Source: an uncultured Bacteroidales bacterium (lineage in GTDB: Bacteria > Bacteroidota > Bacteroidia > Bacteroidales > UBA10428). From it: DNA of 64,000 bases. The DNA lies in assembly GCA_963790105.1 (NCBI GenBank), contig CAWBNI010000025.1, forward strand, positions 76,638 to 140,637, written 5' to 3'. Position numbers and translations under genes: made by a program. Shown in pieces: positions 16,992 through 62,640 of this stretch. Each line of letters starts with the position of its first letter. Position 1 is the first letter of the stretch. Below the pieces are notes generated by a model, which was given only the letters and a program-made list of their open reading frames with translations, ran no database searches and was not told the DNA's origin.

Positions 16992-17453
16992 TTATTCATA
17001 GTTCAGTTGAAGGCCAAAATACTTAAAGACATTTTCAATGGTTTTATCTGTTAGTGCCAAATGAAGCTTGTCGCCATCATAGATAGCGAAGTTGGCAACC
17101 GTATCATGAGGTTTAACTGATTCAAAATTGAAGGTTTCATACCGGTAAAGACTCAACTCACCCTTCTTTTGAAGCAGCTCCATGAAAGCCATATCACCCG
17201 TTGGTTTACCGTACTTGTACAACGGCATTTTATTAAATATTTTTCCCTCTACGGAATAAGAATTCAGCTTTTCAATAGGTAACTTCATTACCTTACCATT
17301 TTCCAGCACTGCCCGGACATTGGATATACCAAAGCTGATACTTTTTATGTTCATTTTACCAGACGTTGTTGATATCCAGGAACTGGTGGGTTCAGCTGCA
17401 ATTCCCGCGAGGCAATAACCGGCAGCTACTAAAAGAACAAACAATTTTTTCAT
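16992..17453 (-). CDS. Small secreted protein, paralog family member P3
   Basis: Intact 153 aa with a signal peptide. GGAGGAA lies 6 nt upstream of the ATG (17460-17466 on plus). Confidence 0.6.
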   Translation of the reverse strand: MKKLFVLLVAAGYCLAGIAAEPTSSWISTTSGKMNIKSISFGISNVRAVLENGKVMKLPIEKLNSYSVEGKIFNKMPLYKYGKPTGDMAFMELLQKKGELSLYRYETFNFESVKPHDTVANFAIYDGDKLHLALTDKTIENVFKYFGLQLNYE

Positions 17454-17586: not shown

Positions 17587-17640
17587 GATTTAACGATTTT
17601 TGGATTTACGATTTACGATTCTTCGTGGGTTGCACCCACG
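17587..17640. repeat. GATTTAC-type words followed by a hairpin
   Basis: GATTTAACGATTTTTGGATTTACGATTTACGATTCTTCG (ATTTACG is the reverse complement of CGTAAAT). Then a 7-bp stem CGTGGGT-TGC-ACCCACG (17624-17640). Confidence 0.9.
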
Positions 17641-17739
17641 AGTATTGAAATCAGGCACTTTGACGAGTTGATTTCCAAACCTGGTAGCCCAAAAGTTTAA
17701 CGTGTTTGCCCAGTTCTGGTCAGAATTAAATATTATCCC

Positions 17740-17788: not shown

Positions 17789-18254
17789 TTACTCATATAC
17801 AATCTTCACATCAAAATACTTGCTGATATTTGCCATCGATTTTTCGTCCACTGCCAAATAAAAGTTGTCTCCCTTATAAACCAATAAGTTATAAGTTTCT
17901 TTCAGTGGGGTAGTAAATGGCTCGTAAATATAATCAGTACACCTATAAAGGCTTAATTCGCCTTGAGTCTTTATAAGTTCCATAAATGCCATCTGTTCAG
18001 TTGGCTTACCATTTTTATACAAGGTGAGTTTGTTAAACACCTTGCCATTGACTGAATATGAACTAAGCTGGTCAATGGGTAACTTAAGTTTCTTGCCATT
18101 TTCAAGTAAAATCCTGGCATTGGAAAGACCAAAGCTGATCCTTTTCATTTCCATTTTGCCTGATTTGGACATTATCCAGGAACTGGCAGGTTCAGCTGGC
18201 AATCCCCGCGACACAATATCCAGCGACAATCAAAAGAACAAATAACTTTCTCAT
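17789..18254 (-). pseudogene. Small secreted protein, paralog family member P4, frameshift in the signal peptide
   Basis: ATG at 18254 gives MRKLFVLLIVAGYCVAGIAS*. One extra A near 18190 separates this from AEPASSWIMSKSGK.. (ORF 17789-18229). GGAGGAA lies 5 nt upstream of the ATG. Confidence 0.65.
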
Positions 18255-18385: not shown

Positions 18386-18557
18386 GATTTACGATTTCTG
18401 GATTTACGATTTACGATTCTTCGCGATTACCGATTACCGACCTCACCCACACGCTGTCGCTGAAGCTTTAGCGTAAGCGTCCGAAGCCTCAGCGAAGGCG
18501 GGATACCGAACACCGAACACCGAATACCGGTTACCGGTTACCGATTATCGATTACCG
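18386..18557. repeat. Long composite array (ATTTACG, CGATTAC, CCGAACA, CGGTTAC words)
   Basis: ATTTACG at 18387, 18402 and 18409. CGATTAC x2 (18424-18437). A quasi-repeat AGCGTAAGCGT/CAGCGAAGGCG. CCGAACA x2, CGGTTAC x2 and CGATTAT CGATTAC (18505-18557). The 3' part encodes the VIDNR* tail of 18538-19738. Confidence 0.9.
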
Positions 18558-19738
18558 TCTGACTGATTACGCCCGTTTTCTTATCCTTGAGAATAACCTT
18601 CACAGAGCCATCCGGCATGGTTTCCTTCTTTACCAGGTAATGGCCGGCATCATAATCACGGGTGGCATGGATGGGTTCTGACTTGTCCTTGCCCCGCCAG
18701 ATATCGAGTTTCACCGGCTCCCATTTTTTTGATTTTGATGACCTGTAACAGGCATCCATGATCTCATTCACTACATACCCGTCATAGAATGTCTCATTTG
18801 GCTGGGTCTTGTTTTCATAGGCCCGGAACATATCGGTAAACATGTCTGTATATCCCAATTCCACGACCTCATCGCCCACGGGAAACAGCCATCCTTTTTC
18901 GGTCTCGGCTTTTTCAGCCACATAACCTCCTTTGCTGGAAGCTGTGAATATTTCAAATCCTGTTCTGAGGAAATTATTCACCCAGATAGTGCCTTCCGTT
19001 CCCATGGCTTCATCCCTCAGATCCATTCCGCCGCGGAAAGACCAGCTGACTTCAAACTGGCCGATGGCCCCATTTTCGTATTTCACCCATCCCAGGGCAT
19101 TGTCTTCGGCTTCAATGGGCTTTACCAGGGTATCAGCCCAGCACATGACCTCAACGGGGCGGATATCTTTACCAATATAATTCCTTGATATTTCAATGCA
19201 ATGACAACCCATATCAAGCAGCACGCCTCCACCGGAGATTTCTTTTGTCCAGAACCAGTCGCTGTGCGGACCGGGATGTGTTTCCCTTGACCTGGCCCAG
19301 ATCACATCACCTATTGCCCCTGACCTTACTGATTTCAGTGCTTTTAGTGTTTTTGGAGTATAAACCAGATCTTCCATGTATCCATGCATCACACCTGCTT
19401 TTTCTGCGAGTTCAAGCATCTCCATTGCTTCTGCAGCATTGCATCCAAGCGGCTTGGTGCAGAAAACTGCTTTCTTTGCTTTTGCAGCCAGCCTCACTGC
19501 CTCCAGGTGCAGGTTATTTGGCAGCGCCACTACTACAATGTCAACTTCAGGATCATTTACTGCCTTTCTCCATTGAAGTGGTCCATTCAGGTATGCCGTG
19601 TTTCTGGGCAAAGGCCTTTCCCCGGCCTTCATCCCGTGAATAAATGACCTGCACTGCATCACGGCTTCGCTGACCATGAATGGAAAAAGTATAAAAATCA
19701 CCGATAAATCCGGCACCGAGCATGGCTACTTTTGGCAT
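18538..19738 (-). pseudogene. Gfo/Idh/MocA-family NAD(P)-dependent oxidoreductase, one frameshift
   Basis: The N-terminal piece 19553-19738 has the Rossmann motif [11 protein letters not shown]. The remainder lies in 18538-19716. Frames 1>0 (one extra nt). Confidence 0.8.
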
Positions 19739-20002
19739 AGTTGTTAGTTGTTAGTTGTTAGTTGTTAGTTGTTAGGTATCAGGCTGTTAGGCTGTAGGCT
19801 GTTAGGCTGCTAGGCTGTTAGCGTACTAGGCTTCTGCAGGCTTGCACGTTGACTGCAGAACTGCAGACTGCACATCTGCATAACTATCAAATTTGCACAT
19901 TAGCACATTTGCACATTAGCAAATCTTGCACATTGTAAATTGCACATTGTATTGTCTTTCACTTTTAGTTATTAGTTTTTATCATTTATCTTTTATCTTT
20001 AT
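19739..20002. repeat. Largest composite array, filling a divergent spacer
   Basis: GTTGTTA x5 (19740-19774). GGCTGTTA/GGCTGTA/GGCTGCTA x5-6 (19782-19830). CTGCAG-containing units. Six GCACAT cores (19870-19947). TTAGTT and TTTATC stutters to about 20002. Confidence 0.95.
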
Positions 20003-20028
20003 GTCCCTAACTAAAATACATTATTCCC

Positions 20029-21357
20029 ATGAAAAGAATAACATGTCTGGGCATATTTTTGACCCTTTCTTTTTACCTGGTTGCACAAGTGTATCAGCCA
20101 ACCTGGGAATCTATCGATAAAAGACCTGTTCCCCAGTGGTTTACCAATGCAAAATTTGGCATTTTTATTCACTGGGGTGTGTATTCTGTTCCCTCATGGG
20201 CTCCCGCCAATGCACCCATTGGCGTTTATGCCAAATATGCCGAGTGGTACTGGTATAAAACTACTGTTAATTCCGGTGAAGAATACAAATATTTCAGGGC
20301 ATTTGATTCCACCATGTATGGTGCAAAGCATAAATACGCTGATTTTGCCGGACAGTTTAAGGCGGAATTGTTTGATCCCACGGCAATGGGCAGATGTTTT
20401 TGTAAGGTCGGGTGCAAAGTATGTGGTTCTCACCTCAAAACATCATGAAGGGTTCTGCCTCTGGCCCAGTGAGCAAAGCTGGAACTGGAATGCCGTGGAT
20501 ATCGGCCCGCACCGTGATCTGGCCGGCGATCTTACCAGGGCAGTAAAAGCCAGGGGACTGCATATGGGCTTTTATTATTCCCTGTATGAATGGTTTAATC
20601 CACTTTATAAAAACAATCTCGAAGAAATATGTGGATGATCACATGATCCCGCAAATGAAGGACCTTGTTACCAGGTATACCAGCCTGACATACTATGGAC
20701 TGATGGGGAATGGGAACATCCCAGTGAGGATTGGAAAAGCACTGACATTCCTGTCATGGCTGTACAATGAATCGCCCGTAAAAGACCAGGTTGTGGTTAA
20801 TGACCGGTGGGGCAAGGAAACAAGATCGGTACACGGTGGAATCTATACAACTGAATATGATCTGGTAAACGATAAAAAGGGAATCGGCAGTGCAGCTGCC
20901 CATCCATGGGAAGAATGCCGGGGTATCGGAACTTCTTTTGGTTACAACCGGGTTGAAGACCTGAATAATTATATGAGTTCAAAGGCACTGGTGGATTTGC
21001 TTATTGCGAAAGTGTCATCCGGCGGAAATCTTTTGCTTGATATCGGTCCTACAGCTGACGGACTGATTCCGGTTATCATGCAGCAACGGCTTGATTGATA
21101 TAGGCGACTGGCTGAAGGTAAACGGCGAAGCCATTTATGATTCCCGTGTATGGCAAAAGCAACCGTCCGCTGCAATCCCGGATGTGTATTTCACCTGCAA
21201 GGGCAGCGATCTGTATGTTATCTGCACAAAATGGCCTCAGAAATCACTTGTTATTCCGGGGATTCATTCAGCCGGAAAAGTATCCCTGTTGGGATCAGAC
21301 GTAAAGGTCAGTGCACAGGCAAATGGAAAACTCACAATTCGATCCACCTTCAATTAA
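20029..21357 (+). pseudogene. GH29 alpha-L-fucosidase, at least 3 frameshifts
   Basis: Pieces starting at 20029, 20081, 20586 and 21091 (frames 1>2>0>1). Motifs [47 protein letters not shown] and GGNLLLDIGPTADG. Confidence 0.85.
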
Positions 21358-21472
21358 TCCCGGGAAACATGCCCTGTTCATATGCATGGGTTTTCAAGGT
21401 AGAAAATTACCGGGATTAACAGCTACTTTTCTACTGAAATTACGTATACAAATCTGAGACTAAAAAGAACGC

Positions 21473-23691
21473 ATGTTACTACGGTGGATTATTACTTTTT
21501 ATGTATTGCAGGTATTTTTTCAAAGTTCATTCGCTCGGAATAACACAATTGATCATTGGGAAACGGTAGTGATGGCCAATGATACCTGGCATTATTTTGT
21601 GGGATTTAACATCGGACCTCCGTTAGGGCTGGCAGAATCCCGCTTTTAATGATGCCACCTGGCTAGCAAGGTCCCGGAGGATTTGGCTATGGCGACGGAG
21701 ATGACGCTACTTTGATTTCCACGTCCCGCCAAATCCTTACTCGGTCTTTATCCGCTTGCAGTTCACGATCCAGGATACCTCGAAAATCAGCATGGCGCTT
21801 TTGAATATGGACTTTGACGATGGTTTTGTTGCCTGGATCAATGGTGTTGAAATAGCCCGGTCAAACCTCGGAACGGTTGGTGATTATCCTGCCTTTAATG
21901 CCGCAGCCATTGATCATGAAGCAGTGATGTACAATCAGAATGGCTCCACCTTCTTACCTGGTTTCCAGGCAAAAGTTAAAGGATGCCTGATAAATGGTAC
22001 AAATGTAATCGCCATACAGGTGAATAATATTAAGCAATACTTCCAGTGATATGAGCTGTATTCCCTACCTGTCGGTGGCTATGAAAACCGCAGGACTCAC
22101 TTACCGGAATGTTCCTGCCTGGTTTGAAGAACCCTATGTAAATTTCGTCGGTTCCACTCTTCCTTTGATAATTATCAATACCGGTTCAAATGTTTTGCAA
22201 CAGGATGTTAAAACGATGGTGGACATGGGTATCATCGATAACGGACCCGGAGAAATGAATTATCTAACTGACGATTGGAACAATTACAATGGCAAAGCAG
22301 GAATTGAGATAAGGGGTTCATCCTCTACCATGTTTGATAAGAAGAATTATGGAATCGAACTTATGGAAAACGGCCGAAGATGATACCTCCTTTTCCCTGA
22401 TGGGCTTGCCGGCCGAAAGCGACTGGATTTTACATGGCCCTTATTCCGACAAAGCTCTGATTCGAAATTACCTGGCCTATACTCTGGCCCGTGATATGGG
22501 CCATTATGCATCCCGCACACGTTTCTGTGAATTGTTTCTGAATGATCAGTACAGGGGTGTTTACGTTCTTATTGAACGAATTAAACGTGACAGTGCCCGT
22601 GTGGATATTGCCAAATTGTTGCCTACCGATGTCACCGGCGATCAGCTTACCGGAGGGTATATCGTAAAAATCGACAGGTCAGCCGGTGATTATACAGATG
22701 GCTGGTTTTCTCCCTATCTTGGAACAGGAAGTGGCGGAAGCGGCCCGTTTTTTGCCTACAGTTATCCCCAGCGGGATAAAATTGCGCCAGATACAGAAAA
22801 CCTACATTAAAAATAAGATCACTTCTTTTGAAGATGCCCTGCACGGAAGCAAGTACCTTGATCCGTATGTGGGTTATAAGACTTTCATTGATGTGAGCTC
22901 TTTTGTTGATTATTTTATCATGGTTGAATTGAGCAAGAACACTGATGGATACAGGCTGAGTACCTTTCTTCATAAGGACCGCGATGGAAAGGATCCCAGA
23001 CTTCATATGGGCCCGATCTGGGATTATGACCTTGCATTATGGAAATGCCAATTATTATGAGTCTTTTAATACCTATGGGTGGAATTATACTTTTCAGTCG
23101 GACGGGTGGGGAACTCCCTTCTGGTGGAACAAGATGCTGACCGATCCCTATTTTGTGAATATGTTATATTGCCGGTGGCATGAGTTCAGGCAGGGAGTAC
23201 TATCCGATGAATCCATACTGGCACGCATTGATTCTGCTGTTTCTGTTATTGGTGCTGCTGCAGGACAGGAACTTTGTGCAGTGGCCGATCCTGGGAGTAT
23301 GGGTATGGCCAAATTATTATGTAGGATACACCTATGAGCAGGATGATCAGCTATATGAAAACATGGATCACTGACCGGGCTGCCTGGCTGGATTCCAATA
23401 TACCGGGAAACACCTGCCTTTCGCCGGTAAATGATAAGGATGCCACTTTTACCTTTCTTTTAAGGGCCTATCCAAATCCTGCCATCGAAGAGGTAAATAT
23501 TGAGATACAGAATGAAAGATCTGAAAAGCTGGGTCTGGAGATCTTTAATTACACAGGCCAGCTGGTATACAGTAAACAATTGTCCAGCTGAGCCAATGGT
23601 CACTGAAAAAATCAGGCTCCAGCCAGGTGCCTACCTTATTAAAGTAACCGGAAAAGAAAATTCAAGGACAGAAAAAATCATGGTGCAATAA
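21473..23691 (+). pseudogene. Secreted CotH-family protein with a T9SS C-terminal sorting domain, about 10 frameshifts
   Basis: Signal peptide at 21473. CotH core KKNYGIEL..WILHGPYSDKALIRNYLAYTLARDMGHYASRTRFCELFLNDQYRGVYVLIERIKRD. C-terminal domain YPNPAIEEVNIEI..GAYLIKV. Pieces step through frames 2>0>1>..>1. Confidence 0.75.
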
Positions 23692-27745: not shown

Positions 27746-27795
27746 GGTATTCGGTATTCAGGTAATCGGTAATCGGTAATCGGTATTCAGTAATG
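27746..27795. repeat. GGTATTC / GGTAATC heptamer array
   Basis: GGTATTC x2, GGTAATC x3, GGTATTC, AGTAATG. The array starts 1 nt after the transporter stop codon. GTAATCG is the reverse complement of CGATTAC. Confidence 0.95.
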
Positions 27796-29272: not shown

Positions 29273-30092
29273 ATGCAAGACAGGCATCAGCACTTATACT
29301 TATACATGGGCCATTGGCGTTCCCGGTTCAGAACCGGAAAAACCCATGTCTGTCTTTTCGCTTATCAGGAAGGCTGCCGGATTCAAAGTGGACTGTGTTC
29401 AGCTGGCCGATAATTTGCCACCTCAACTGGCCTGACAGGGAAGAAATGTCCGGATCCTCGAGTTTGCCGCAAAGCAATAATATTCAAGATTGAAATCGGT
29501 GGCAGGGGACTTACAGAAGAAAATCTTCACACGCCATATTGAAATGGCCGCCTATTTTGGATCACCGATTGTTCGCATGGTTATCGATGGCAATGATTAT
29601 TATCCTGAATTGGACACCATCTTATCCGTTATCAGGAACAGCCGGCAGGAACTGGAATCAAAAGGAATTATCCTGGCCATTGAAAATCATGACCGCCTGC
29701 ATGCCTCAGTCTTTCAGGGATATTGTAGAGTCATCAGGCAGCAGCCAATGTGGGCATTTGCCTCGATTGTGTCAATTCAATCGGTATAGGGGAGGACATT
29801 GAAACCGTACTTAACTGCCTGGCCCCTTATACTGTAAATCTGCACATAAAAGATTTCAGTGTTAAACGGGTATCGCATAAAATGGGATTTATCATTGAAG
29901 GAACACCTGCAGGCCAGGGACTGTTGGATCTTCCGCGCATTCTCGAGAGACTGCAGCCTTATGGCCGTTGCCAGAGCGGTATCCTGGAATTATGGACACC
30001 GCCGGCTGGAAAGTCTAAGCGAAACCATTCAACTTGAAGACGTCTGGGCCCGTGCAAGCGTAAGCTATATAAAACAAATTTTAAACAGCTGA
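29273..30092 (+). pseudogene. Sugar-phosphate isomerase/epimerase (xylose-isomerase-like TIM barrel), multiple frameshifts
   Basis: Joined pieces read GISTYTYTWAIGVPG.., IEIGGRGLTEENLHRHIEMAAYFGSPIVRMVIDG, ILAIENHD, GICLDCVNSIG and NLHIKDF. Confidence 0.65.
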
Positions 30093-30093
30093 T

Positions 30094-30925
30094 ATGAAAA
30101 AGAAAATAACCCTTGTGGGAGCCGGTGGAAAAATGGGACTCCGTTTGACCCGGAATCTTAAGAATTCGGCCTTTGAAATGGCTTATCTTGAAGTGAGCCA
30201 GGCAGGCATCGATAAGCTGAAGGAACTGGGTGTTCTGTTTCTGCCGAGGAAAAGGCACTCGCGGATGCGGATGTGGTTATTCTGGCCGTGCCTGATACCC
30301 ATCTTGGCAAAGTATCCGCGGCAACTCATTCCGAAGATGAAAAAAAATGCCCTGGTGATGACGCTTGATCCTGCTGTTGCAAGGGCAGGAAAGCTTTTTC
30401 TCCGTGAGGATGTAGCTTATTTTATAACTCACCCGGCCCATCCTTCGGTATTTAACTGGGAGCCTACGCCGGAAGCCCAGGCTGACTTTTTCGGCGGATC
30501 GCTGGCTAAACAGCCGATAGTTTGCGCCCTTATGCACGGGGCTGAAGAATATTATGAACCTGGGTGAAGAGATAGCACGGCAAATGTATGCCCCGGTTTC
30601 AAAATCCTTCAGGGTGACCATGGAACAAATGGCACTTCTGGAACCCGCCCTGGTGGAAACCCTTTCATCTTCCTGCCTTGATCTGGTGAGGGAGGGTATG
30701 GAAGAGATCATTAAAAGGGGAGTACCTGCTGAGGCTGCCCGTGAATTTCTTTTCGGACATATTAACATCCAGCTGGCTGTTCTTTTCAAAGAATTGCCGA
30801 ATGCTGTTTTCTCCGATGCTGCCAACAAGGCCCTGCAAAGAGGACGAAGCATCCTGTTCAAGGAAGACTGGAAGAAGATCTTTGAACCTGACAATGTGCT
30901 GCAACAGGTAATGGACATCACTTAG
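30094..30925 (+). pseudogene. NAD(P)-binding dehydrogenase-like protein, frameshifted (includes a hidden compensating pair)
   Basis: Rossmann motif ITLVGAGGKMG. Segment ~30237-30325 reads sensibly only in another frame (VSAEEKALADADVVILAVPDTHLGKVSA). A further shift lies near 30555. Confidence 0.5.
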
Positions 30926-30930
30926 CAGTG

Positions 30931-31043
30931 AATTGATAGTTGATAGTTGATCGTGAGACTGGGAGTGAATGACTGCAAGCCTTGTTCATAACTCCAACTA
31001 CAACTACCAACAACTAACAACTAACAACTAACAACAATCAACT
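30931..31043. repeat. Composite array ending in the (TAACAAC)n leader
   Basis: TTGATAG x2-3 (30933-30953). AACTCCA/ACTACAA/CTACCAA words. TAACAAC x3 (31015-31035), then AATCAACT immediately before the ATG at 31044. Confidence 0.95.
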
Positions 31044-32096
31044 ATGCTAAAATATGCAGTATTCGGATGCGGTTTTTGGGCAAAATTTCAAATCGGAGCC
31101 TGGTCCGAAATTGAGGGGGTTGAATTGGTTGCCTTATATAACCGTACATTGGTGAAAGCACAAAAATTGGCTGAAATGTTTCACGTGCCACATGTGTATG
31201 ACAATGCGGAAGAATTGCTCCAAAATGAAAAGCCTGATTTTGTTGAAATAATTACTGATGTGGATACGCATGCCTTGTTCACGGAACTGGCAGTTAAACA
31301 TGGTGTTAAAAACATTATTTGCCAGAAACCGATGGCACCTGATTTTGAGACGGCCAAAACACATGGTGGATTTATGCAGGAATGCCGGGGTAAATTTATA
31401 CATCCATGAAAATTACCGTTGGCAGGCACCGGTCCGTCGTTTCCGTGAGATCATGGATTCGGGTATTATCGGCACGCCTTTTAAAGCCCGGGTTTCATTT
31501 CTGTCAGGTTTTCCTGTATTCGATAACCAGCCTTTTCTTAAAAATCTGGATAAGTTTATCCTCACGGATATGGGATCGCATATTCTTGATGTCACCCGTT
31601 ATCTTTTTGGAGAGGTCAAAACACTTTGGTGCCAGACCCGTTCAATTAATCCGGGGATTAAAGGGTGAGGATCTTGCGGTTGTGATGATGTGAAATGAAA
31701 AACAGGATGCCTGTATATACTGAAATGTCATATGCATCCATTGTTGAACATGATTCTTTCTCCACGGTTTTTATCCTGGTTGAAGGCGACAAAGGTTCTG
31801 TTTACCTGGGTCCCGGATTTGAGATCAGGACAACAACCCGTGAAAAAACTACATCTGAAATTGTGAAATTTCCGGGTTATCCCTGGGCTGACCCGAATTA
31901 TATTGTAAATCATGAAAGTGGTATACCGCTCAGCCGGAATATCCTGGCAGACATGCTCGCAAAGGGAAAGGCCGAAAATACAGGGGCTGATAATTTCGAA
32001 ACAGTAAAACTGGTATGGGCCTCCTATGAATCAGCAGCTACCGGAAAACTGATCGACGTGGATTCATTTAGTGGAAATAACGGCCATATTGAATAA
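31044..32096 (+). pseudogene. Second Gfo/Idh/MocA-family oxidoreductase, 2-3 frameshifts
   Basis: N-terminus FGCGFWAKFQ..ICQKPMA. Middle HENYRWQAPVRRF.. (frame of 31258). C-terminal piece 31695-32096. Confidence 0.75.
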
Positions 32097-35915: not shown

Positions 35916-35939
35916 ATCCTATTCTATATCAAAATCAAT

Positions 35940-35967
35940 CGTAAATCGTAAATCGTAAATCGTAAAT
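35940..35967. repeat. CGTAAAT x4
   Basis: Four exact units. As at 1517-1544, the array runs directly into a minus-strand TGA stop (35967-35969). Confidence 0.95.
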
Positions 35968-36513
35968 CAATTTACTGCCATTTTTTCGAGCACCGAACTG
36001 GCCATCAGGTTATTTTTCCGGAGAATTTCCTTGTTCATTTCAAATTTCATAACACCGTTTACCGGGATAAAATTAATCATTGATCCTTTATCAATCAGAC
36101 CTTCGGTTTGAGAAACGATGAGCGTATGGCTTCCGCTGGTCTTTTGTACCAATGCATTTATTTTGTTGCTCTGCCAGTCAGCCACAAATACAATTTGCTG
36201 GTATCCTGAAACTTCATTCACCGAACTAAAATACCTTACAACGATAGGCTGCAAACCAACCCTCATGTTTTGAGTAAGCTTTGTCATTTCAGTATAAAGT
36301 TCCTTATCACCAACGATCGTAGATGACAAAGTCACCCGATTTGTTTTCTTCCGGCCAGTTAATGTTTCTCGAAAAATTGTAAAGACAATTTGAAAGATAC
36401 TTCGTCATTGAAACAATTTTCACATCCTGGGATTTACCTGACTCTGTAATTAAAAACAGCAGTATAAATGCAACTGTCAATCTGAGGCCGGTCTTTAAGA
36501 TAGATCTGTTCAT
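35967..36513 (-). pseudogene. YfiR-like (DUF4154) periplasmic protein, one frameshift
   Basis: Signal-peptide piece 36307-36513 plus body 35967-36335 (frames 0>2). The family call is from overall similarity only. Confidence 0.5.
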
Positions 36514-48310: not shown

Positions 48311-49297
48311 TAAATTTAAACACCTTAAACAAGTACGCAAACGCCGGAAAGATTAAAACGATCCCTACAATCAGTGCATACTAAGCAAATAATACATTGT
48401 TTTTTCAGGTGCCCTTGTATTCCATACAGTCAGATGTCTGTCCGCCTGAAATATAAACCATTACCGGGAACTGCACCGCAAACCAGCCAGTGAGTATGCA
48501 GGCAGTTTGAATACCCGCCAGGATCCGTGTCCACACTGCATTCTTCCTTTTGATCTGGATCCACATAATTGGAATAAGCAGGGTAGCCATGATCATACAA
48601 CCCATACTTACATATGAATGAAGGAACTTCTGCAGAAAATGCAGCTCGTAATAATGCGCTGCAATAAAAACGATCAAACCGCTCAGCGATCAGGAATGAG
48701 AATAAAATAATGGCAGTCCGTGCAAACAGGGGATATGTTTCATCTGTAGCCTCACCAATCAGGTAAACCGAGGCGATCCAGCCAAACAAAAGGGTTAAAA
48801 ACAGACCTGTGGCAATTGAAAATCCATTCAGCCAGGGTGCCATGAATACCTGAATAAAATGTACCTTCCGCACTATCCGGTATCTTTCCCAGCATGACAG
48901 CACCCAGAACAATTCCCAGAAAAAACGGGGTGAGCAGGCTTGAAAAGCGGAACAGAAAGGAATAATATTGATTTCCTGTTTCATGCGGAACATCATAATA
49001 CCTGAATGTAAAGGCTGAGCCACGGATAATTATCCCGATGAGTATGATCAGCAGGGGAATATGGAGGTAGGTGGTGAGCCGTGTATAAACAAGTGGAAAG
49101 CCGTTAAACAGAATGACAACGGCCAGGATAATCCAGATGTGATTTGCCTCCCACACAGGGGCTATAGCCTGGGAGATTGTTTTAATTCCTTTTTTTCCGG
49201 TAATCCATTCCACTATTCCGGCCCCAAAATCGGCACCTCCCAGCAGCACATACAACAGGATGGCAATTCCCAATATGCCAATTATGATCTCAGTCAT
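48297..49297 (-). pseudogene. cydB: Cytochrome bd ubiquinol oxidase subunit II, about 4 frame changes
   Basis: Pieces ending at 49297, 49023 and 48677. Then ..LTVWNTRAPEKTMYYLLS and ALIVGIVLIFPAFAYLFKVFKFRKRD* in other frames. Confidence 0.8.
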
Positions 49298-50614
49298 GGC
49301 TGTATGCTTTTTGAGGTATCCTTTTGCAGGGCTGCTATCTGCCTTTTCATCAGCAGAAAAACAACCATCGTGAGGGTAAGATAAATAAAAGTGACAAGGT
49401 AAAATGAATACCGGATACCGGGCATAGGAGTAACCGATTCACTTGTTCTTAGAATGCCATAAATGATCCACGGTTGACGTCCTGTTTCAGTGACAATCCA
49501 TCCGGCTTCCACTGCAATAAATCCCGCAGGTGTGAGCCAGGCCAGTGTGGTGAGCCACCATCGCTTTTGCAGGGTTTCTTTCCATTTAAATGTAAAGAGC
49601 AGGTTCATTAACGCAGCAAGGGCCATGATCACTTCCCATGAAGACCATGAGCTGAAATGCGATATGCACTATTGGAACAGGCGGCCAGTCGGTTTTTTTG
49701 AATTTGTCCAGGCCGGTAACCTCCGCATTAAAATCCCCATGTGCCAGAAAACTCAATAACCCGGGAATGTGAATGGCATATTTTACCTCTTCTTTTGATG
49801 TGTCGGGAATTCCACCGATTACCATGCGGGCCGGTGCAGAGGTTTTAAAAAGAGATTCCATGGCTGCCAGTTTTGCAGGTTGAAGGCGGGCTACATTTTT
49901 TGCTGAAATATCACCGCTTATGGGCTGCAATAATGCAGCCACGGTGGCAAAGGCCAGGGATATCCTCACGGCTTTTTGATGAACCGGGTTGTCCTTATCC
50001 TTAAGCAGCAACCAGGAGTGAATTCCGGCCACTGCAAAACAGGTTGAGGCAAAGGATGCAATTGTCATGTGCAGGGCCTGTTGAAACCACGCCTTGTTGA
50101 ACATAGCCTTAACCGGATCTATATTGATCGCCTGCCCGTTTACCCAGTCAAATCCGGCCGGAGAATTCATCCAGGCATTGGCTGACACAACAAAGATTCC
50201 CGATATTACACCGGCTATTCCAACAACCAGTCCCGACATGAGGTGCACATACCTGTTCACCCGGTTCCATCCATACAGGAATACCCCGAGTGCTATGGCT
50301 TCGAGAAAGAAAGCAGTTCCTTCCCATGAAAAGGGCATGCCAATAATTGATCCGGCATGCTCCATAAATTTGGGCCACAGCAAGCCCAGTTCAAAAGATA
50401 AAACCGTGCCTGAAACAGCACCTACAGCGAAGAAAATTGCAACCCCCCGGGACCAGGCCTTGGCAAGATCGAGATAATACGATTTTCCTGTCCTTATCCA
50501 TTTATATTCCGCAACAAACATCAGCCATGGCATGGCCATACCAATGCAGGCAAATACAATGTGAAAAATAAATGAAACCGACATCTGATAGCGTGCCGCA
50601 AGTAAATTATCCAT
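49294..50614 (-). pseudogene. cydA: Cytochrome bd ubiquinol oxidase subunit I, one frameshift
   Basis: N-terminus MDNLLAARYQMSVSFIFHIVFACIGMAMPW.. (49586-50614) plus the C-terminal piece 49294-49632. Frames 1>0. Confidence 0.85.
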
Positions 50615-55576: not shown

Positions 55577-57454
55577 ATCGTAAGCATAATAGTGAGTAAA
55601 ATCACCAGTCCAGCCGTCAATACAAGGGCATACAACCTGAGTTTGCCGTTTTGCGACCTGCTGAGCAAACCGTTAAAGAACATGACGGACTGCGCTATAT
55701 AGGTAAAGATCTTATCGAGCACATCGTTTTTGTTAATAGCGGATATCCATTCAACAGGCCTTACGATCAACCGGTCATACAGCCAGTCGAATCCCCATCC
55801 CCTATAAAAAAAGTCATTCAGTCCGTGCTGATTGAACAGGGCAGGGAAGGACTTCTTTTTATAATAATAGACATATGCCAGCCAGACACCGCCCAGCGCT
55901 ATAATCGCAGAAATAACCTGGAACAGCCATTCCGGTAAGTGCCTCGCCGGTCAGATGTGACTTCCGGAAACAGGGGGTTCAACAAGGTTGAAAAAAGATG
56001 TACTGGTCCCAGGTTTTCAGGCAATTCTATAAAACCGCCGGCCAGCGAAAGAAAGGCAAGAACTAGCCAGCGGAATTCCCATCAGAATGCCGGGTTTATG
56101 TTTGGGTTCAATTTTAAGCTCTCCGAAAAAGGTAAGAAATATCATCCGGAAAGTATACAGCGAGGTAATCAGGGCACCCGCAATACCGGCAAGCCATAGC
56201 CATTTGCTTCCCATGCCGGACGACCACGAAAACCAGAGGATCTGGTCCTTGCTGTAAAAGCCTGCCGTGATGAGAGGCAGTGCAGACAGTGATGCACCGC
56301 CAATGAGGAAGGTGATGAAAACCAGGGGCAGTTTTTTTCGCAAACCTCCCATTTTGTGCATATCGTGTTCCTCATGCAGCAACAATATCACACTTCCGGC
56401 GCCAAGAAAGAGCAGAGCCTTAAAGAACGCATGGATCATGAAATGGAAAATGGCAGCTGACCAGGCGCCCACTCCCAGGGCAAGGAACATATAACCGATC
56501 TGGCTTATCGTGGAATAGGCAAGTACACGTTTCAGATCGTGCTGGTTCAAAGCACTGAAGCCGGCAATAAACAGGGTTGCTGCGCCGATGATGGCTACCA
56601 GGGTCTGAACTGCAGGTGCCAGGCTGAACAGAACATGGGTGCGGGCAATCAGGTATACTCCGGCTGTTACCATGGTTGCTGCATGGATGAGTGCACTGAC
56701 CGGCGAGGGACCGGCCATGGCATCAGGCAGCCAGGTCTGCAGGGGCAGCTGGGCGGATTTTCCCACCGCTCCTCCCAGCAGCAGCAAGGCAGAGATCACC
56801 GCAAGCGGCGAGCCGGAATGCCATTGAACAGGCGCCTGCTGCATGAGGGTATCAATATCCAGGGTTCCAAAACTTACAAAAACAGGAATAATCCGATGAT
56901 CATGAAGGTATCACCGATACGGGTAACGATAAATGCTTTGCGGGCAGCATTGTTGTTTTCAGGATCCTTATACCAGAAGCCGATCAGCAGGTAACTGCAT
57001 AATCCGACTCCTTCCCATCCAAGGTAAAGAAGCAAGCAGATTTCCGGCCAGCACCAGGACAAGCATGGAGGCAACAAACAGGTTCATATAGGCGAAAAAC
57101 CGCGAAAAGCCCTCATCGTCCTGCATGAATTCAACCGAATACAGATGGATCAGGGCACCCACAAAGGTGATGACAAAACAAAATACAAGGGAAAGGGCAT
57201 CCAGTTTAAGGGTTATGCCGGCAGTAAATCCACCTGCATTCATCCAGGTATACAGGGTGGATGTAACTGCTGTTCCCCCGGGATGTGAAGAGAGAAAATT
57301 AATCCCCGATAACCATGGTAAGCATGGCAGACAGGCAGACAGAGCCAACGGCAATGACGGCAACAGCCCGGCGTGACAGTATCCTGCCAAAGAAAACGAT
57401 AATCAGAAAACTGAGAACAGGCAAACCGGGTATTAGTCCAATATAGGCATCCAT
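55573..57454 (-). pseudogene. nuoL: NADH:quinone oxidoreductase subunit L, about 6 frame changes
   Basis: Start MDAYIGLIPGLPVLSFLII at 57454. Pieces ending at 57390, 57077, 56844 and 55770, with further shifts in 55770-56017. Confidence 0.75.
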
Positions 57455-57480
57455 CTGCAATTGTTTATATTACTTTTTTA

Positions 57481-57786
57481 TCATGCAACTTTCTGAATCG
57501 AATCCGCATCAAGGGTTTTGAAATGATGATACATCTGAAGGATAAGGGAAAGCCCGACAGAAACCTCGGCCGCCGAAACCGTCAGAATAAAAATAAACAT
57601 TACCTGTCCGTCGGTCTGCATCCAGTGCGATCCGGCAATCACAAAAGCAAGTCCGGCACTGTTCAGCATGATTTCAATGGATAACAGCATATAAATCACA
57701 TTCCGGCGCACCAGGAAACCGACCAGTCCGATCAGGAAGATCATCCCGGCAAACATCAATTGAATTTCCATTGACAGGGTTACCAT
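57481..57786 (-). CDS. nuoK: NADH:quinone oxidoreductase subunit K
   Basis: Intact 101 aa with three TM helices, in the correct position between nuoJ and nuoL. Confidence 0.85.
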   Translation of the reverse strand: MVTLSMEIQLMFAGMIFLIGLVGFLVRRNVIYMLLSIEIMLNSAGLAFVIAGSHWMQTDGQVMFIFILTVSAAEVSVGLSLILQMYHHFKTLDADSIQKVA

Positions 57787-57789
57787 ATC

Positions 57790-58348
57790 TTAAGCCTGTT
57801 TGTTTAGTTAACGTCTTTTCTTCCCCGGGTTGTTTTACCAGGAACCGGTGGATGACTTTCTTTTTCTGTTTACCCAGGTGATAGGCCCCGACTATACCGG
57901 CCATCAGAACACTGCAGCTATTTCAACAGCAATAAGATAGGTTGTGAAAAGGGAAACGCCAACCTGTTTGGGTGTAATTACAACCGCTGACTGTATTCAC
58001 CGAATGCAATTGCCTCATGGCATACACCAGAATGGCCAGCAGTGCACAGTGACAGGAATAACAGGCAAAATCCACATCCGGGGTTTCAGCCATTTGTTTT
58101 CGATTTCTTCTTCCAGGCCAATGTTGAGGATCATCACAACAAATATGAACAATACCATGATGGCACCGGCATAGACAATCACTTCAAGGGCTGCAATAAA
58201 AGGTGCACCCGAAATATAAAATATGATTGAAATGGAAAGAAGCGACAGGATCAGGTACAGCAGGGCATGAATAGCATTGCGGTTGGTGATCGACATCAGC
58301 GATGAGATCAGGGCGATGGATGGCTGCAATAATAAAAATCGTATTCAT
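57790..58348 (-). pseudogene. nuoJ: NADH:quinone oxidoreductase subunit J, 2-3 frame changes (3' end approximate)
   Basis: ATG at 58348 (MNTIFIIAAI) shifts into ALISSLMSITNRNAIHALLYL..VYAGAIMVLFIFVVMIL. The tail is in 57674-57904. Confidence 0.65.
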
Positions 58349-58369
58349 GTATTCACTGAATATTATTTT

Positions 58370-58885
58370 CTAATGAATCAGACTTTTCAAATCAACCGGG
58401 GGTTCTTCATTTTCACCCGTTCCGGTATCTTTCACTCCCATATCTACTCCTGCCACACGGTAAAAATTATATCCCGGATATTTTCCCTGTCCGCTGATCA
58501 GCAGGTGCTCTTTTTCATAGACCAGGTTCTGACGGTCATATTCTGCCATTTCAAAATCGGGGATCAGCTGGATGGCATAGGTAGGGCATGCCTCTTCACA
58601 AAGGCCGCAATAAATACATCGCGAAAAATTGATCCTGAAAAACTCCGGATACCGCCTTCCGTCCGTATCCTCGGTCGACTGCAAGGCGATGCAGTCCACC
58701 GGGCAGGCAGCTGCACATAGATTACAGGCAACACATCTTTCTTTCCCGTCAGGGTCGCGGGTCAGCACAATCCTTCCCCTGTAACGCGGCGGCAAATAGG
58801 GTTTCTTTTCAGGATATCCCCTGGTTTCGCGTTTATGAAATGCATGCAGGAATGTGATCCATATGCTTCTTAATATACTTATCAT
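58370..58885 (-). CDS. nuoI: NADH:quinone oxidoreductase subunit I (2x[4Fe-4S])
   Basis: Intact 171 aa. [12 protein letters not shown] and [12 protein letters not shown]. Confidence 0.9.
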
Positions 58886-59830
58886 ACCGTTCTATAAATT
58901 ATAACTGCACCAGTAATTAATATGTTGAGCAAAACAAGGGGTAACAGAACTTTCCAGCCCACTTCCATCAGCTGGTCATATCTCGGCCGGGGAAGTGAAG
59001 CCCGGATAAGAATGAACATGCAGATAAAAAACGCTGTTTTGAAAAAGAACCAGAATGCGGGCGGTAAAAAAGCGGGACCCAGCCAGCCCCCAAAGAAAAG
59101 AGTGGCAATGAGGGCAGAAATAAGGGTAACACCCATATATTCACCGACGAAGAACATGCCGAATTTCATTCCCGAATATTCGGAATGATATCCTGCCACC
59201 AGTTCGCCTTCTGCTTCCGGAATATCGAAGGGTGTACGGTGTGTTTCTGCCAGACCGGCGATAAAGAATATCACAAAACCCGACAAACTGGGGAAGTATA
59301 AACCAGCCTCCCCGCTGTGCTTCAACAATTTCGCGAAGGCTGAAGCTGTCGGCCATCATAACGACACCCACAAGCGACAGACCCATAAATACTTCATAGG
59401 TAAGCATCTGGGCTGAACCACGGATTGATCCCAAAAGGGAATATTTATTGTTTGAAGCCCATCCGCCGAGGACAATGCTGTATACGCCCAGGGAAGAATT
59501 GCCCAGGAAGAAAAGCAGGCCGATGTTGGAATCCAGTACCAGGAATTTATCGGTAAAAGGAATAACGGCAAAGGTGAGCAGGATACTGCCTACCAGGATG
59601 CCGGGCGCCAGAACAAACACTCTTTTATCGGCAAAGGGCGGGATCCAGTCTTCTTTGAAAAAGATCTTTATCACATCGGCAATTACCTGCAGCAGACCGA
59701 ACGGACCCACACGGTTCGGACCATACCTGTCCTGGAAAAGCGCCAGCAGCCTTCTTTCAACATATATCAGGCCTGCCGCTATGGTCAGCACAATCAGTAA
59801 TACACCTGCAATAATAAATACATACTTCAT
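58882..59830 (-). pseudogene. nuoH: NADH:quinone oxidoreductase subunit H, one frameshift
   Basis: 59141-59830 (VERRLLALFQDRYGPNRVGPFGLLQ) plus 58882-59328 ([27 protein letters not shown]). Frames 1>0. Confidence 0.85.
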
Positions 59831-59870
59831 ACTGTATCCATTTCAAAAGTTATTTTCTATCCTAACATTT

Positions 59871-59946
59871 CGAAATCGTAAATCGTACAATCGCGATTAC
59901 CGTATCCTACCGATGTACCGATTACCGATTACCGATCACCGATCAC
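59871..59946. repeat. Word-stutter array inside the nuo operon (nuoG-nuoH spacer)
   Basis: CGAAAT CGTAAAT CGTACAAT CGCGATTAC .. CGATGTAC CGATTAC CGATTAC CGATCAC CGATCAC. The last units encode GVIGDR* of nuoG. Confidence 0.95.
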
Positions 59947-62640
59947 CCCCCAGGCCGGCAATCCTATAAAAGGGATTTCCGGCAACATGGAAATACCCGC
60001 AATGCCATCCGGAATATGAGGATCTGTAAGGATCACAGCCTCCAGATTATTTTCATTTATGCTGATCTTGTAAACTGTGTTTTCACTGAGCTTTAATTTT
60101 GCTGCCATTCCAATACTGAGCAGAACAAAGGGTTGTGGAATTAGTTCAGCAATTGCCTGACCATGAGCACTTAATTCCTCTGAGCCGAAAATGCGGTGTA
60201 CCGGGACAAACAGAAATTCCCCGTTCCTTTGTTTAAAGGGTTCCGGCACCCTGATGATTTATCAGTCCGGAAGGCAAAGCAGTCCGGTCAAACAGCCGCA
60301 CACCCGGATTGCCATCCCATACCGGTCCGTCAGGTTCTTTCAGGTATTTATTGATCGCCTGTGCTGAATTCCAGCCGGGTGACCAGTAGTAGGGAATGAG
60401 TTCAGCGGGAGGATATCCCTTGTATCCTTCCATGCTGAATTTCAGGGGTGAATCCGGATCCTGGGGCGGTTCGGGTTCACTTACGTTTTGCCTTGCATTC
60501 ATGGCAGTGCGGCCACTGAATCGTGATGTTTGCCGCGCGATCTTTTCGTTATAAAAGGTAAATCCTGCATCCGGCATTTGCTCCTTAATTCCTGAAAAAA
60601 CAGGATAGGCTTCCACAAGCGAATTCAACCACCTCGTCAAATTTTTGCCATGAATGGATATTTTTGCCGGATAGATTCATCAGATCCGATGATCCATTGC
60701 CAGTTTTCTTTCACCGGATCCCTGGCAGGCAAAGCACTGTAATACCTTTGTGCACGGCCTTCGTGGTTCACAAGGGTGCCGGCCGATTCAGCATACACGG
60801 CGGAGGGGATTACCAGGTCTGCCTTGAGAGCAGTGGCATGCATCAGGTGATCGAGCACAATAACATGCGGGCATTTTTCAAGAATTTTATCTGCCTGTTT
60901 TGCCGGAAGCCTTCTGTAAAGATCGTTTTCAAGAATGATCAGTACCTCGGGCGGCTGCTGTGTCAATCTGTGCGAGTGCATCGTTCAGATGCCCGCCTTC
61001 CATCATACCAAGTCCTGCGCTGTTGCTTTCAGGGAAAGCGATCGCAATGGACAGCTTTTTATTCCTTCCCGGTAAACGCTTTACATTATTTTGGTCACTG
61101 CATCCAGAATCTCCATGCTGCCTCCGGTAATACCTGTGACGATCAAAGGATTTTCCGCTGAAAGAAGGGTCTCACTTATCCTGGAGGCCATTTCTTTCAA
61201 TGATTTGTCAGTCATCTTTATCTTCAGAATCCGGCGGATCCGATGGCAGATGCAACTGCAAAGCCCAGGCGGGCTATATCATCCGGAGCGGCATACCATG
61301 TTTCCGTAGCCACATCATCGAGTTTGGTTGAGAAGGGGAGGCAATAAACAAGGGACTTTTCACCTCATGATTCAGCTGGCGGACAGCAGAATCGTTCCAT
61401 TCAGGAATTCCCATTTTGGAAGCGATGCCGATGGACTTGTTCCGGATGCACTGGCGGACCGACAACGCCATCATGGGTGCCGTATTTGTAATGTCTTCTC
61501 CCAGGATCAAAACAGCATCGCATTTTTCAATTTCTTTCAGCGAGGGTATATGCGCCATGCCTGATCTGCAGGATCTCCAGTGCTTTTTTTACCATTTCAT
61601 ATTCCCTTGGATGAAACTCCATGGTAGAAATTATCCTTTCCGACAAATTCTGACAAGGCAAAATTTGCCTCCAGGGATGCCCTCGGAGAGCCAATTCCCA
61701 TTAATTCATTTCCTTCGAGGGAAGCAGTAAGTCCGGTCAATTGATCCAGGCCATGTATTTCATTCAAGGGATCTTTTTTTGAATCCCGAACAAGGATCTG
61801 CCGGATACGGTCTGTACTTTCAATGAATTCATAGCCAAACCGTCCCCGGTCGCACAGGAAATAGCCGTTAATATCCCCGTGATACCGGCTCAGCGTGCGT
61901 CTTACTGATCCATACCGCTCGCCGAGGATGGTATTGCAGCCCACACTGCAATGCACGCATACCGATGGTCCATTGGTGAGGTCCCATTTACGGGTATAAT
62001 GTTTTTTCAGGGTTTTATCGGTAAAAACACCGGTGGGGCATACTTCAACAAGGTTTCCGCTGAATTCGCTTTCAAGGGTTCCTTCCTTCTGTCGTCCAAA
62101 ATAAACATGATTTGCAGAACCATATACATTCAGGTCCTTTCCGCCTGCATAGTCCTTATAAAATCTTACACACCGGTAACACTGGATGCAGCGGTTCATT
62201 TCATGCTGAATGAAAGGGCCCAGGTATTGATTTGTATAGGTTCTCTTTTTAAATACAAACCGCCTGTAGTTATGACCGGTCATCACGGTCATGTCCTGCA
62301 GGTGACATTCTCCTCCTTCATCGCATATGGGGCAATCATGGGGATGATTGGTCATCAGTCCTTCCACAACGCCAGCCCTGAAATCCGCTGCATCTTTATC
62401 ATCAACTGAAACCAGCATGCCATCGGTTACAGGTTCCATGCATGACATCACAATTTTGCCTGTTTTGTCGTCGGGATTTGCATATTTCTTAACTGCGCAC
62501 TGACGGCATGCACCCACTGATCCCAGGGCAGCATGATAGCAAAAATAGGGAACATCGATACCCAGGGCAATACAGGTTTCGAGAAGATTTTTGCCTTCCT
62601 TTACCTCATAAATAATACCGTCTATCTGTATTTTTATCAT
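59929..62640 (-). pseudogene. nuoG: NADH:quinone oxidoreductase subunit G (long, E. coli-like form), at least 5 frame changes
   Basis: Start MIKIQIDG at 62640. Motifs [25 protein letters not shown] and [11 protein letters not shown]. Collinear pieces end at 61558, 60981, 60640 and 60249. Confidence 0.85.

Follow-up and report, generated by a model that had tools for sequence, protein, structure and literature searches.

A G-free heptamer array ending on the start codons of two oxidoreductase genes in a Bacteroidales genome: a candidate Shine-Dalgarno-free initiation region

We analyzed a 64,000-nt stretch of DNA from an uncultured Bacteroidales bacterium (contig CAWBNI010000025.1, positions 76,638 to 140,637; this whole stretch is called the window), in which two genes for Gfo/Idh/MocA oxidoreductases are each preceded by an array of the heptamer TAACAAC that runs directly into the start codon. 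The closest described system is the TAACTGA direct repeat, which immediately precedes start codons in marine Beggiatoaceae as well as in 15 Cyanobacteria and 5 Bacteroidetes, and for which a translational role has been proposed (MacGregor, 2015, Front Microbiol, PMC4679880). The (TAACAAC)n arrays resemble it in that they consist of tandem 7-nt units beginning with TAAC, are intergenic, and are forward-oriented and at most a few nucleotides away from the ATG. In both cases there is no Shine-Dalgarno motif, stop codons occur in all three frames, the phyla are the same, the genes downstream differ in function across genomes, close strains differ by insertions or deletions in 7-nt steps, and other heptamer arrays are present in the spacers. 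Unlike TAACTGA, the unit here is TAACAAC and free of G, two loci occur within 64 kb, and the arrays are found amid many 7- and 8-nt families and hairpins. TAACAAC is not mentioned by MacGregor (2015, PMC4679880), and a literature search for the literal heptamer gave no relevant match. The habit of Cyanobacteria and Bacteroidota to place heptamers against start codons is already described, if little studied; new here are the unit, the lineage, and a quantified rule of orientation, proximity and low G content across phyla and phages.

Short tandemly repeated repetitive (STRR) sequences are reportedly found in cyanobacteria. Long simple sequence repeats (LSSRs) with units of 5-11 nt are reported for the same phylum (Mrazek, 2007). 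The arrays of the window share with these the dominance of heptamers, a few unit families spread over many intergenic sites, and a proposed origin by slippage; furthermore, cyanobacteria contribute 67 of the at least 120 genome loci with (TAACAAC)3 described below. They differ in that their source is a Bacteroidota and that octamers are common too, and STRRs were described without reference to start codons. A link to start codons was made for Nostoc PCC 7120, where contiguous heptamers overlap the start codon of recO and are present at that of recF, and heptamers overlap or lie within 30 nt of at least 13 gene starts, and a general regulatory role was suggested; deletion of the repeat altered the response of the recO promoter to NtcA and LexA in E. 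coli, with no clear mechanism (Pradhan, 2022, bioRxiv 10.1101/2022.06.06.494920). The units in that strain are GACYAAT and TTCAAAA, unlike the one studied here.

Three further systems are comparable in mechanism or position. Single-stranded CA-repeat tails serve as ribosome standby sites and strongly enhance initiation, an effect that levels off at its maximum when the tail is 16-18 nt long (Sterk, Romilly and Wagner, 2018, Nucleic Acids Research, PMC5934652). The tracts studied here are also C/A-rich, unstructured, upstream of an initiation site and longer than 16-18 nt, and standby is the mechanism that we propose for them. However, the CA tails were synthetic dinucleotide repeats, used in E. 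coli upstream of a structured Shine-Dalgarno site, whereas here a natural heptamer occurs with no Shine-Dalgarno motif, in front of a ribosome that ignores it; the likeness is one of mechanism, not of family. The CAA-rich omega leader of tobacco mosaic virus provides S1-dependent enhancement. Shine-Dalgarno usage is reportedly low in both Cyanobacteria and Bacteroidota. In Flavobacterium johnsoniae, A at -3, -6, -12 and -13 and low structure promote initiation (Baez, 2019, PMC6847099). The arrays agree with such Shine-Dalgarno-independent regions of Bacteroidia (Baez, 2019, PMC6847099; Jha, 2021, PMC7797042) in being A-rich at -14 to -11, low in structure from -20 to +20, and free of a nearby AUG, and differ from ordinary Bacteroidia leaders, which are non-repetitive and A/U-rich. 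Finally, the (ATCTTTC)n repeat of Haemophilus influenzae hmw acts via RNase III and a long hairpin, one arm of which is rich in G (Rapun-Araiz, 2025, PMC12721329). It shares with our arrays the heptamer unit, the variable copy number and the location in a 5'-untranslated region (presumed in our case); in contrast to hmw, no hairpin with a complementary arm was found here, and the genes do not encode phase-variable surface proteins.

The two arrays and the genes that they precede are as follows.

31001 to 31043, plus strand: array of gene 1, CAACTA-CAACTAC-CAACAAC-(TAACAAC)3-AATCAAC-T, an A/C-rich, slightly degenerate heptamer array that abuts the ATG at 31044.
19739 to 19775, minus strand: array of gene 2, (TAACAAC)5.4, a perfect heptamer array with CAACT directly on the ATG at 19738.
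31044 to 32096, plus strand: gene 1, a Gfo/Idh/MocA oxidoreductase of the D-apiose dehydrogenase type, with three 1-nt insertions that break the frame and synteny with the intact loci L203 and L210.
18538 to 19738, minus strand: gene 2, a Gfo/Idh/MocA oxidoreductase of 399 amino acids when reconstructed, with one 1-nt insertion that breaks the frame.

Positions 31001-31046 of the plus strand read CAACTACAACTACCAACAACTAACAACTAACAACTAACAACAATCAACT-ATG, and positions 19775-19736 of the minus strand read CCTAACAACTAACAACTAACAACTAACAACTAACAACT-ATG. Tandem Repeats Finder (TRF) reported a period of 7 for both, with 5.4 copies and 100% matches at 19738-19775 (gene 2) and 5.1 copies and 89% matches at 31009-31044 (gene 1). 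Each array thus has at least two tandem 7-nt units at a distance of 0 nt from the ATG, and the register is common to both. The two-unit 14-mer, with up to one mismatch, occurred seven times in the window, every time within the two arrays, compared with an expected count of 0.01 in dinucleotide shuffles. Single TAACAAC units elsewhere in the window were scattered through coding sequence, none adjoining a start. An initial reading of the sequence alone (below, the sequence-only reading) had pointed out that same-orientation arrays end with CAACT on two ATGs; the sequences, TRF and the chance test all agree with it. The arrays are non-random, and they are real, since relatives from independent assemblies, including several Joint Genome Institute metagenome contigs, have them too.

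Both ATGs are true starts, because dozens of orthologues begin at the same codon. The orthologous proteins start with M[LT]KYAVFGCG in the case of gene 1 and with M[PAT]KVAMLGAG in the case of gene 2. The two proteins of the window are 24% identical, placing them in one superfamily but not among recent paralogues.

G is absent from both arrays, as are AUG, GUG and UUG, and UAA is present in each frame; the unit contains TAA and 7 is coprime with 3, so that forward-oriented arrays have stops in all three frames. The CAACT-ATG register places A at -3, -6, -13 and -14 and C at -12. Both genes therefore have A at three (-3, -6, -13) of the four positions that favor initiation in F. johnsoniae, with C at -12, and, as in those initiation regions, predicted structure around the start is low and AUG is absent from the arrays.

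The mean predicted probability of being unpaired between -20 and +10 was 0.66 for gene 1 and 0.75 for gene 2, with values of 0.56-0.82 for six orthologues. The corresponding values for 24 other gene starts in related loci averaged 0.46 and did not exceed 0.63, so that all were below both array-led genes. Replacement of the tract by any other array family of the window lowered predicted accessibility to 0.29-0.63, its reverse complement gave 0.13-0.42, and deletion gave about 0.48. The whole gene 2 leader was predicted to fold worse than all 200 shuffles (z = +2.25), and the gene 1 spacer had no significant structure (z = -0.9). The initial description of the arrays as A-rich, unstructured leaders was thus supported: they have no G, almost no pairing potential, A at -3, -6 and -13, and higher predicted accessibility than the 24 other starts.

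In order to see how such arrays are placed in other genomes, we scanned for (TAACAAC)3 with one genome per species, which yielded at least 120 loci. All genome results below refer to the matches listed, of which 67 were from Cyanobacteria and 33 from Bacteroidota. Arrays were extended over degenerate units, and the distance was measured to the next ATG opening at least 100 codons, in both orientations. Among 99 non-edge arrays, 22 were located at most 10 nt upstream of an ATG in the C/A sense, and only 1 in the G/T sense. Pairing by G skew gave 21 versus 1 (p = 1e-5), and the orientation bias was present in both phyla. Of the C/A-sense arrays located up to 300 nt upstream of a gene, roughly half were at most 10 nt from the ATG, compared with about 5% in the opposite orientation. 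In an independent set of 44 viral contigs, the counts for C/A versus G/T sense were 9 versus 0 within 10 nt and 14 versus 0 within 30 nt. In other genomes the word, in this orientation, is thus strongly enriched directly upstream of starts, as the sequence-only reading would require.

Pfam matches indicated that the downstream open reading frames (ORFs) are real genes starting at those ATGs. Their functions were unrelated (e.g., Fmt, SurE, ribosomal protein L2, a histidine kinase, a glycosyltransferase and PlsY), and no function common to the downstream genes across genomes was found. Other 7- and 8-nt arrays of the same loci behaved similarly: the G-poor strand was the sense strand in 19 of 21 G-skewed start-abutting arrays (p = 2e-4). 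Start-abutting arrays had on average 7% G and 41% A, and arrays elsewhere 20% G and 30% A. Where the gap between array and ATG was 10 nt or less, no Shine-Dalgarno motif was present in it; in several cases with longer gaps, among these loci and the viral contigs, the gap contained an AGGAG-type motif.

Arrays of (TAACAAC)3 or longer were found mainly in filamentous Cyanobacteria and Bacteroidota, with a few in Thermoanaerobaculia and other groups. The 44 viral contigs with such arrays included three giant-virus bins.

Orthologous leaders were read in 80 related loci for gene 2, and loci were examined singly for gene 1. Percentages refer to protein identity unless stated otherwise.

L121, gene 2, 92%: ACAACT AACAACT ATCAACT AACAACT-ATG.
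L122, gene 2, 92%: TAACAAC AAACAAC TATCAAC TAACAAC TATAAT-ATG.
L124, gene 2, 93%: about 1.5 units.
L123, positions 223-283, gene 2, 96%, the closest orthologue: octamer (CAAATCAW)8 instead of (TAACAAC)n, G-free, 4 nt from the ATG.
Other gene 2 orthologues, 86% or less: ordinary A/T-rich leaders, a few with unrelated arrays further upstream.
L203, gene 1, 94%: A/C-rich array on the ATG.
L205, gene 1, 92%: A/C-rich array on the ATG.
L204, gene 1, 91%: A/C-rich array on the ATG.
L206, gene 1, 89%: A/C-rich array on the ATG.
L208/L209, gene 1, 89%: A/C-rich array on the ATG.
L210, gene 1, 87% (DNA): A/C-rich array on the ATG.
L207, positions 1473-1500, gene 1, 86%: 28-nt spacer accacaactttcTAACAACctataccaa with a single TAACAAC and no array.

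Orthologues with a protein identity of about 89% or higher thus have an A/C-rich array at the ATG, in L123 with a different octamer as its unit; copy numbers are 1.5 to 5.4 or more over both genes and about 2 to 5 in the gene 1 orthologues. Copy number shifted by whole units between relatives, as it does in STRRs and long simple sequence repeats. Outside the array, the gene 1 spacer was wholly different even between L203 and L210, which are 91% identical at the DNA level. Judging from its sequence, the single TAACAAC of L207 may be the seed, or proto-repeat, from which the array expanded. L208 and L209 are Logan contigs from different runs, and the first base of each falls inside the array, 31 nt ahead of the ATG. 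It seems that the repeats cause assemblies to break, so that such leaders are probably under-represented in short-read assemblies.

Comparison of relatives also accounts for the presence of one leader in front of two different genes. The region upstream of gene 1 in L203 and the region upstream of gene 2 in L121 were 90% identical over 91 nt (E = 9e-27), although the two genomes were only about 80% identical overall. The shared cassette consisted, in order, of (TGCAGTYK)n, the hairpin GACCCCGAAGGGGTC, the hairpin CCGTGGGTGAAACCCACGG, (AACAACT)n and the ATG. Both hairpins recurred beside other arrays. In the window, only the array is still common to both leaders (27 nt). A non-coding upstream cassette was evidently copied or converted between the two genes in an ancestor, and the similarity of their leaders is therefore due to this copying rather than to convergence or independent selection. 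The sequence-only reading had argued that the genes are too different for a recent duplication of gene plus leader; this holds true at 24% identity, yet the non-coding part was evidently copied.

The cassette sites are L121:9884-10000, L203:9868-9994 and L204:214-279; the cassette is duplicated in L204, and a related hairpin is present in the window at 17623-17641 on the minus strand. GACCCCGAAGGGGTC and CCGTGGGTGAAACCCACGG are small GNRA-type hairpins flanked by arrays, and together the two-hairpin cassette looks like a small mobile or converting intergenic element. Small dispersed hairpin repeats are said to occur in Nostoc.

The remainder of the two spacers contains further arrays.

30926 to 31000, plus strand: rest of the 118-nt spacer that separates gene 1 from the co-directional gene preceding it (stop at 30925), holding (TTGATAG)2.7 at 30933-30951.
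19776 to 20028, minus strand: rest of the divergent intergenic region upstream of gene 2, with a chain of further arrays.
19781 to 19832, gene 2 strand: (CCTAACAG)n, part of this chain.
19851 to 19885, gene 2 strand: (TGCAGTNN)n, part of this chain.
19888 to 19948, gene 2 strand: (AATGTGCW)n, part of this chain.
19977 to 20002, gene 2 strand: (AAAGATA)n, part of this chain.

The chain upstream of gene 2 varied between relatives. No terminator was predicted in the 30926-31000 spacer, and sigma-70 promoter and terminator scans around both leaders gave hits at about shuffle expectation, with models not made for Bacteroidota. A search of the spacers for the Bacteroidetes -7 box (TAnnTTTG) found nothing near the arrays; the sole candidate was a conserved TATTTTAG (20005-20020, minus strand) at the end of the spacer that is remote from gene 2, beside the divergent fucosidase start. 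This box was kept in nearly all gene 2 orthologues with a divergent fucosidase neighbor, and it resembles the -7 promoter element TAnnTTTG. If TATTTTAG is a promoter, the gene 2 leader would have been lengthened by the arrays, from about 55-65 nt originally to about 270 nt. Rfam 15 gave no matches at the gathering score over the whole window.

Taken together, these observations suggest, with moderate confidence, that a slippage-born heptamer microsatellite has become the Shine-Dalgarno-free, single-stranded initiation region of two genes, which share it through a copied cassette. The following scheme could explain how. Throughout the lineage, 7- and 8-nt arrays and small hairpins would form intergenic DNA, lengthen it and rearrange it; replication slippage and ectopic recombination are the probable causes. 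At genes 1 and 2 the array would be transcribed as the final 37-43 nt of the leader, where it is expected to pair with almost nothing. For a Bacteroidia ribosome that ignores Shine-Dalgarno sequences, the tract would be a single-stranded platform, on which the 30S subunit could load beside the start codon, probably via S1, with a possible quantitative effect on expression. By analogy with standby in E. coli, the tract probably acts as an unstructured landing strip for the ribosome. It may also insulate the start from the G-containing, foldable arrays further upstream. Since gain or loss of units in a periodic tract does not alter the bases from -1 to -20, slippage would be tolerated at this site, and (TAACAAC)n would be the only family on ATGs of the window because selection allows or favors only G-poor arrays beside starts.

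The sequence-only reading had also considered a translation-initiation module. The part that stands is that the tract is a presumed 5' leader or initiation region; it is not special to the two genes. The (TAACAAC)n repeat is one family within an STRR-like landscape of arrays, not a private module of two genes. Besides the two tracts, the window contains about 45 7- or 8-nt tandem arrays in about six recurring unit families, which are found upstream of genes, directly after stops and between convergent gene ends. TRF gave 52 rows, mostly of period 7 or 8, and an independent scan agreed. Each recurring unit family is present at 2-5 sites of the window, a dispersal typical of STRRs and long simple sequence repeats. 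Within this landscape, (TAACAAC)n is the sole G-free family and the sole family touching an ATG.

Several observations weigh against a dedicated initiation region. Array-led starts are few: the window has 2 among about 50 genes, and each related locus has 1 among 12-14 called starts, so that ordinary leaders clearly suffice. Both array-led genes are frameshifted in the window. The unit is exchangeable, as seen from (CAAATCAW)8 in L123, and no preferred register of the array relative to the ATG was found across genomes. The array on the 3' side, after the stop of a DUF4154 gene, was equally conserved in position, with 1.5 to 9.5 copies, and persistence of arrays is therefore not specific to the initiation region; for this reason we rejected the argument that conservation implies selection on the leader. 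Finally, a filter would account for the orientation bias and the G-poor rule just as well as a function does, namely if no other arrays are tolerated next to starts.

These points lead to the alternative that survives best, namely that the arrays are a neutral by-product: selfish or slippage-driven repeats without a role, present on both ATGs through cassette copying and because selection removes all but G-poor repeats near starts. The window is full of arrays where a leader role is impossible, and in relatives the cassette is homologous between the two genes (90% over 91 nt). The replaceable unit, the free register across genomes, the conserved 3'-side arrays and the fact that most genes manage without an array fit this explanation as well. 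Nevertheless, avoidance alone does not produce the positive concentration seen for C/A-sense arrays, about half of which are within 10 nt of the ATG. Neither does it explain why only the start-proximal array stays constant when everything else in the spacer is replaced, or why predicted accessibility is extreme in comparison with neighboring genes. We consider neutrality possible but rather unlikely.

Generalization of the proposed initiation role is more speculative. It is doubtful, though conceivable from the scan, that G-poor heptamer arrays are a self-expanding, transferable module for Shine-Dalgarno-independent initiation across Cyanobacteria, Bacteroidota, Beggiatoaceae and their phages, moved together with hairpin cassettes by recombination and acting as a standby platform for 30S and S1.

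A shared regulatory tag, the other function raised initially, would be a heptamer recognized by a small RNA, or by a sequence-specific protein for single-stranded RNA or DNA such as those of the Csp, S1, CsrA or TRAP type; this factor would co-regulate both genes by occlusion or exposure of the start codon. The genes share unit and register, and both lie inside an apiose/fucose utilization locus with a fucosidase, an apiosidase, an apionate lactonase and a GntR-type regulator. Such a role was also proposed for TAACTGA (MacGregor, 2015, PMC4679880), and a heptamer-binding partner was speculated on for Nostoc (Pradhan, 2022, 10.1101/2022.06.06.494920). However, the tag is unsupported across genomes because the downstream genes are functionally unrelated, and the unit sequence is not essential, as the closest gene 2 orthologue has a different one, (CAAATCAW)8. 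Copy number drifts from 1.5 to more than 5, and no candidate binding protein was found encoded beside the arrays. The regulators of the locus (GntR-type and a hybrid two-component system) bind double-stranded DNA, and they are not known to use 7-nt direct repeats. We regard the tag as improbable.

We give similarly little credence to a phase-variable rheostat, in which frequent slippage in unit number would tune both genes within the population, as (ATCTTTC)n does for hmw of H. influenzae. The precedent is attractive, given that the arrays are heptamer simple sequence repeats in a presumed 5'-untranslated region with copy number that varies among close relatives. Yet there is no complementary arm and no significant hairpin, the periodic tract keeps the start-proximal context on gain or loss of units, and the genes encode catabolic enzymes rather than surface antigens. 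Similar arrays are also found at 3' ends and between convergent genes. An hmw-like hairpin of (UUGAUAG)3 with the gene 1 array was considered as a candidate and rejected (ensemble frequency of the minimum free energy pairing 0.005, z = -0.9, not significant).

Lastly, an assembly or sequencing artefact, which the single-base insertions in several genes of the window might suggest, is refuted by orthologous contigs that carry the arrays (at least 10 independent ones at orthologous sites, from different projects and sequencing platforms) and has a negligible probability.

For start-site choice without Shine-Dalgarno pairing, as in Bacteroidia and many cyanobacterial genes, natural G-free periodic leaders provide a ready experimental series, with alleles of about 1 to more than 5 units as well as unit swaps. 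If the tracts recruit ribosomes, long-unexplained microsatellites (STRRs and heptamer simple sequence repeats) would be tied to translation, and compact Shine-Dalgarno-free initiation parts would become available for the engineering of Bacteroidota. In the opposite case, the strong orientation bias and G-poor rule would nonetheless show which sequence is forbidden beside starts in these phyla. Should the module interpretation be true, bacterial "junk" microsatellites would be a widespread ribosome-recruitment device.

The other array families and selected sites of the window are listed below.

GATTTAC / AATCGTA family: five sites in the window.
GATTACC family: four sites in the window.
GCCTAGAT family: two sites in the window.
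AGGCTGT(T) family: two sites in the window.
TCCCTAC / TCCCTAG / TCCCTCG family: two regions in the window.
TGCAGTNN and AATGTGCW: chained upstream of gene 2.
1379 to 1545, no strand assigned: four different 7/8-nt arrays between two convergent gene ends, where a leader role is impossible.
27746 to 27794, plus strand: (GGTAATC/GGTATTC)n after the stop of a sugar transporter gene; the unit family is also present at 18420, 18501 and 59916.
35935 to 35968, minus strand: (GATTTAC)4.9 directly after the DUF4154 stop, kept in position in relatives.

The post-DUF4154 (GATTTAC)n sites in relatives are L203:16750-16905, L204:4975-5220, L206:3331-3460 and L210:16750-16925; the more distant L207 lacks the array. 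Units of the (GGTAATC) family make up the final five codons and the stop of gene 2 (…VIDNR*; 18501-18557, minus strand), which indicates that the C-terminus of this protein was reshaped by an array.

Many genes of the window are split into overlapping ORF fragments, including those at 20029-23600, 29481-30925, 48430-49632 and 56017-61000. The three breaks in gene 1 and the one in gene 2 are single extra bases compared with intact orthologues, e.g., GGCC[A]AAAC and GGGA[T]TAAA. Nevertheless, the frame is unbroken in some long genes, of 4.2, 2.9 and 2.7 kb. Either the assembly is error-prone or the window contains true pseudogenes. The hybrid two-component regulator lies near the apiose/fucose locus, and together with sorting domains of the type IX secretion system it assigns the source to Bacteroidota.

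Two tandem paralogous small genes at 16992-17453 and 17789-18229, both on the minus strand, encode proteins of 153 and 146 amino acids with no Pfam match. Their upstream regions (to about 17640 and 18420, respectively) are nearly identical over about 170 nt and are preceded by (AATCGTA)n arrays. The shared stretch includes GGAGGA at 7-9 nt from the ATG, an unusual motif in Bacteroidia.

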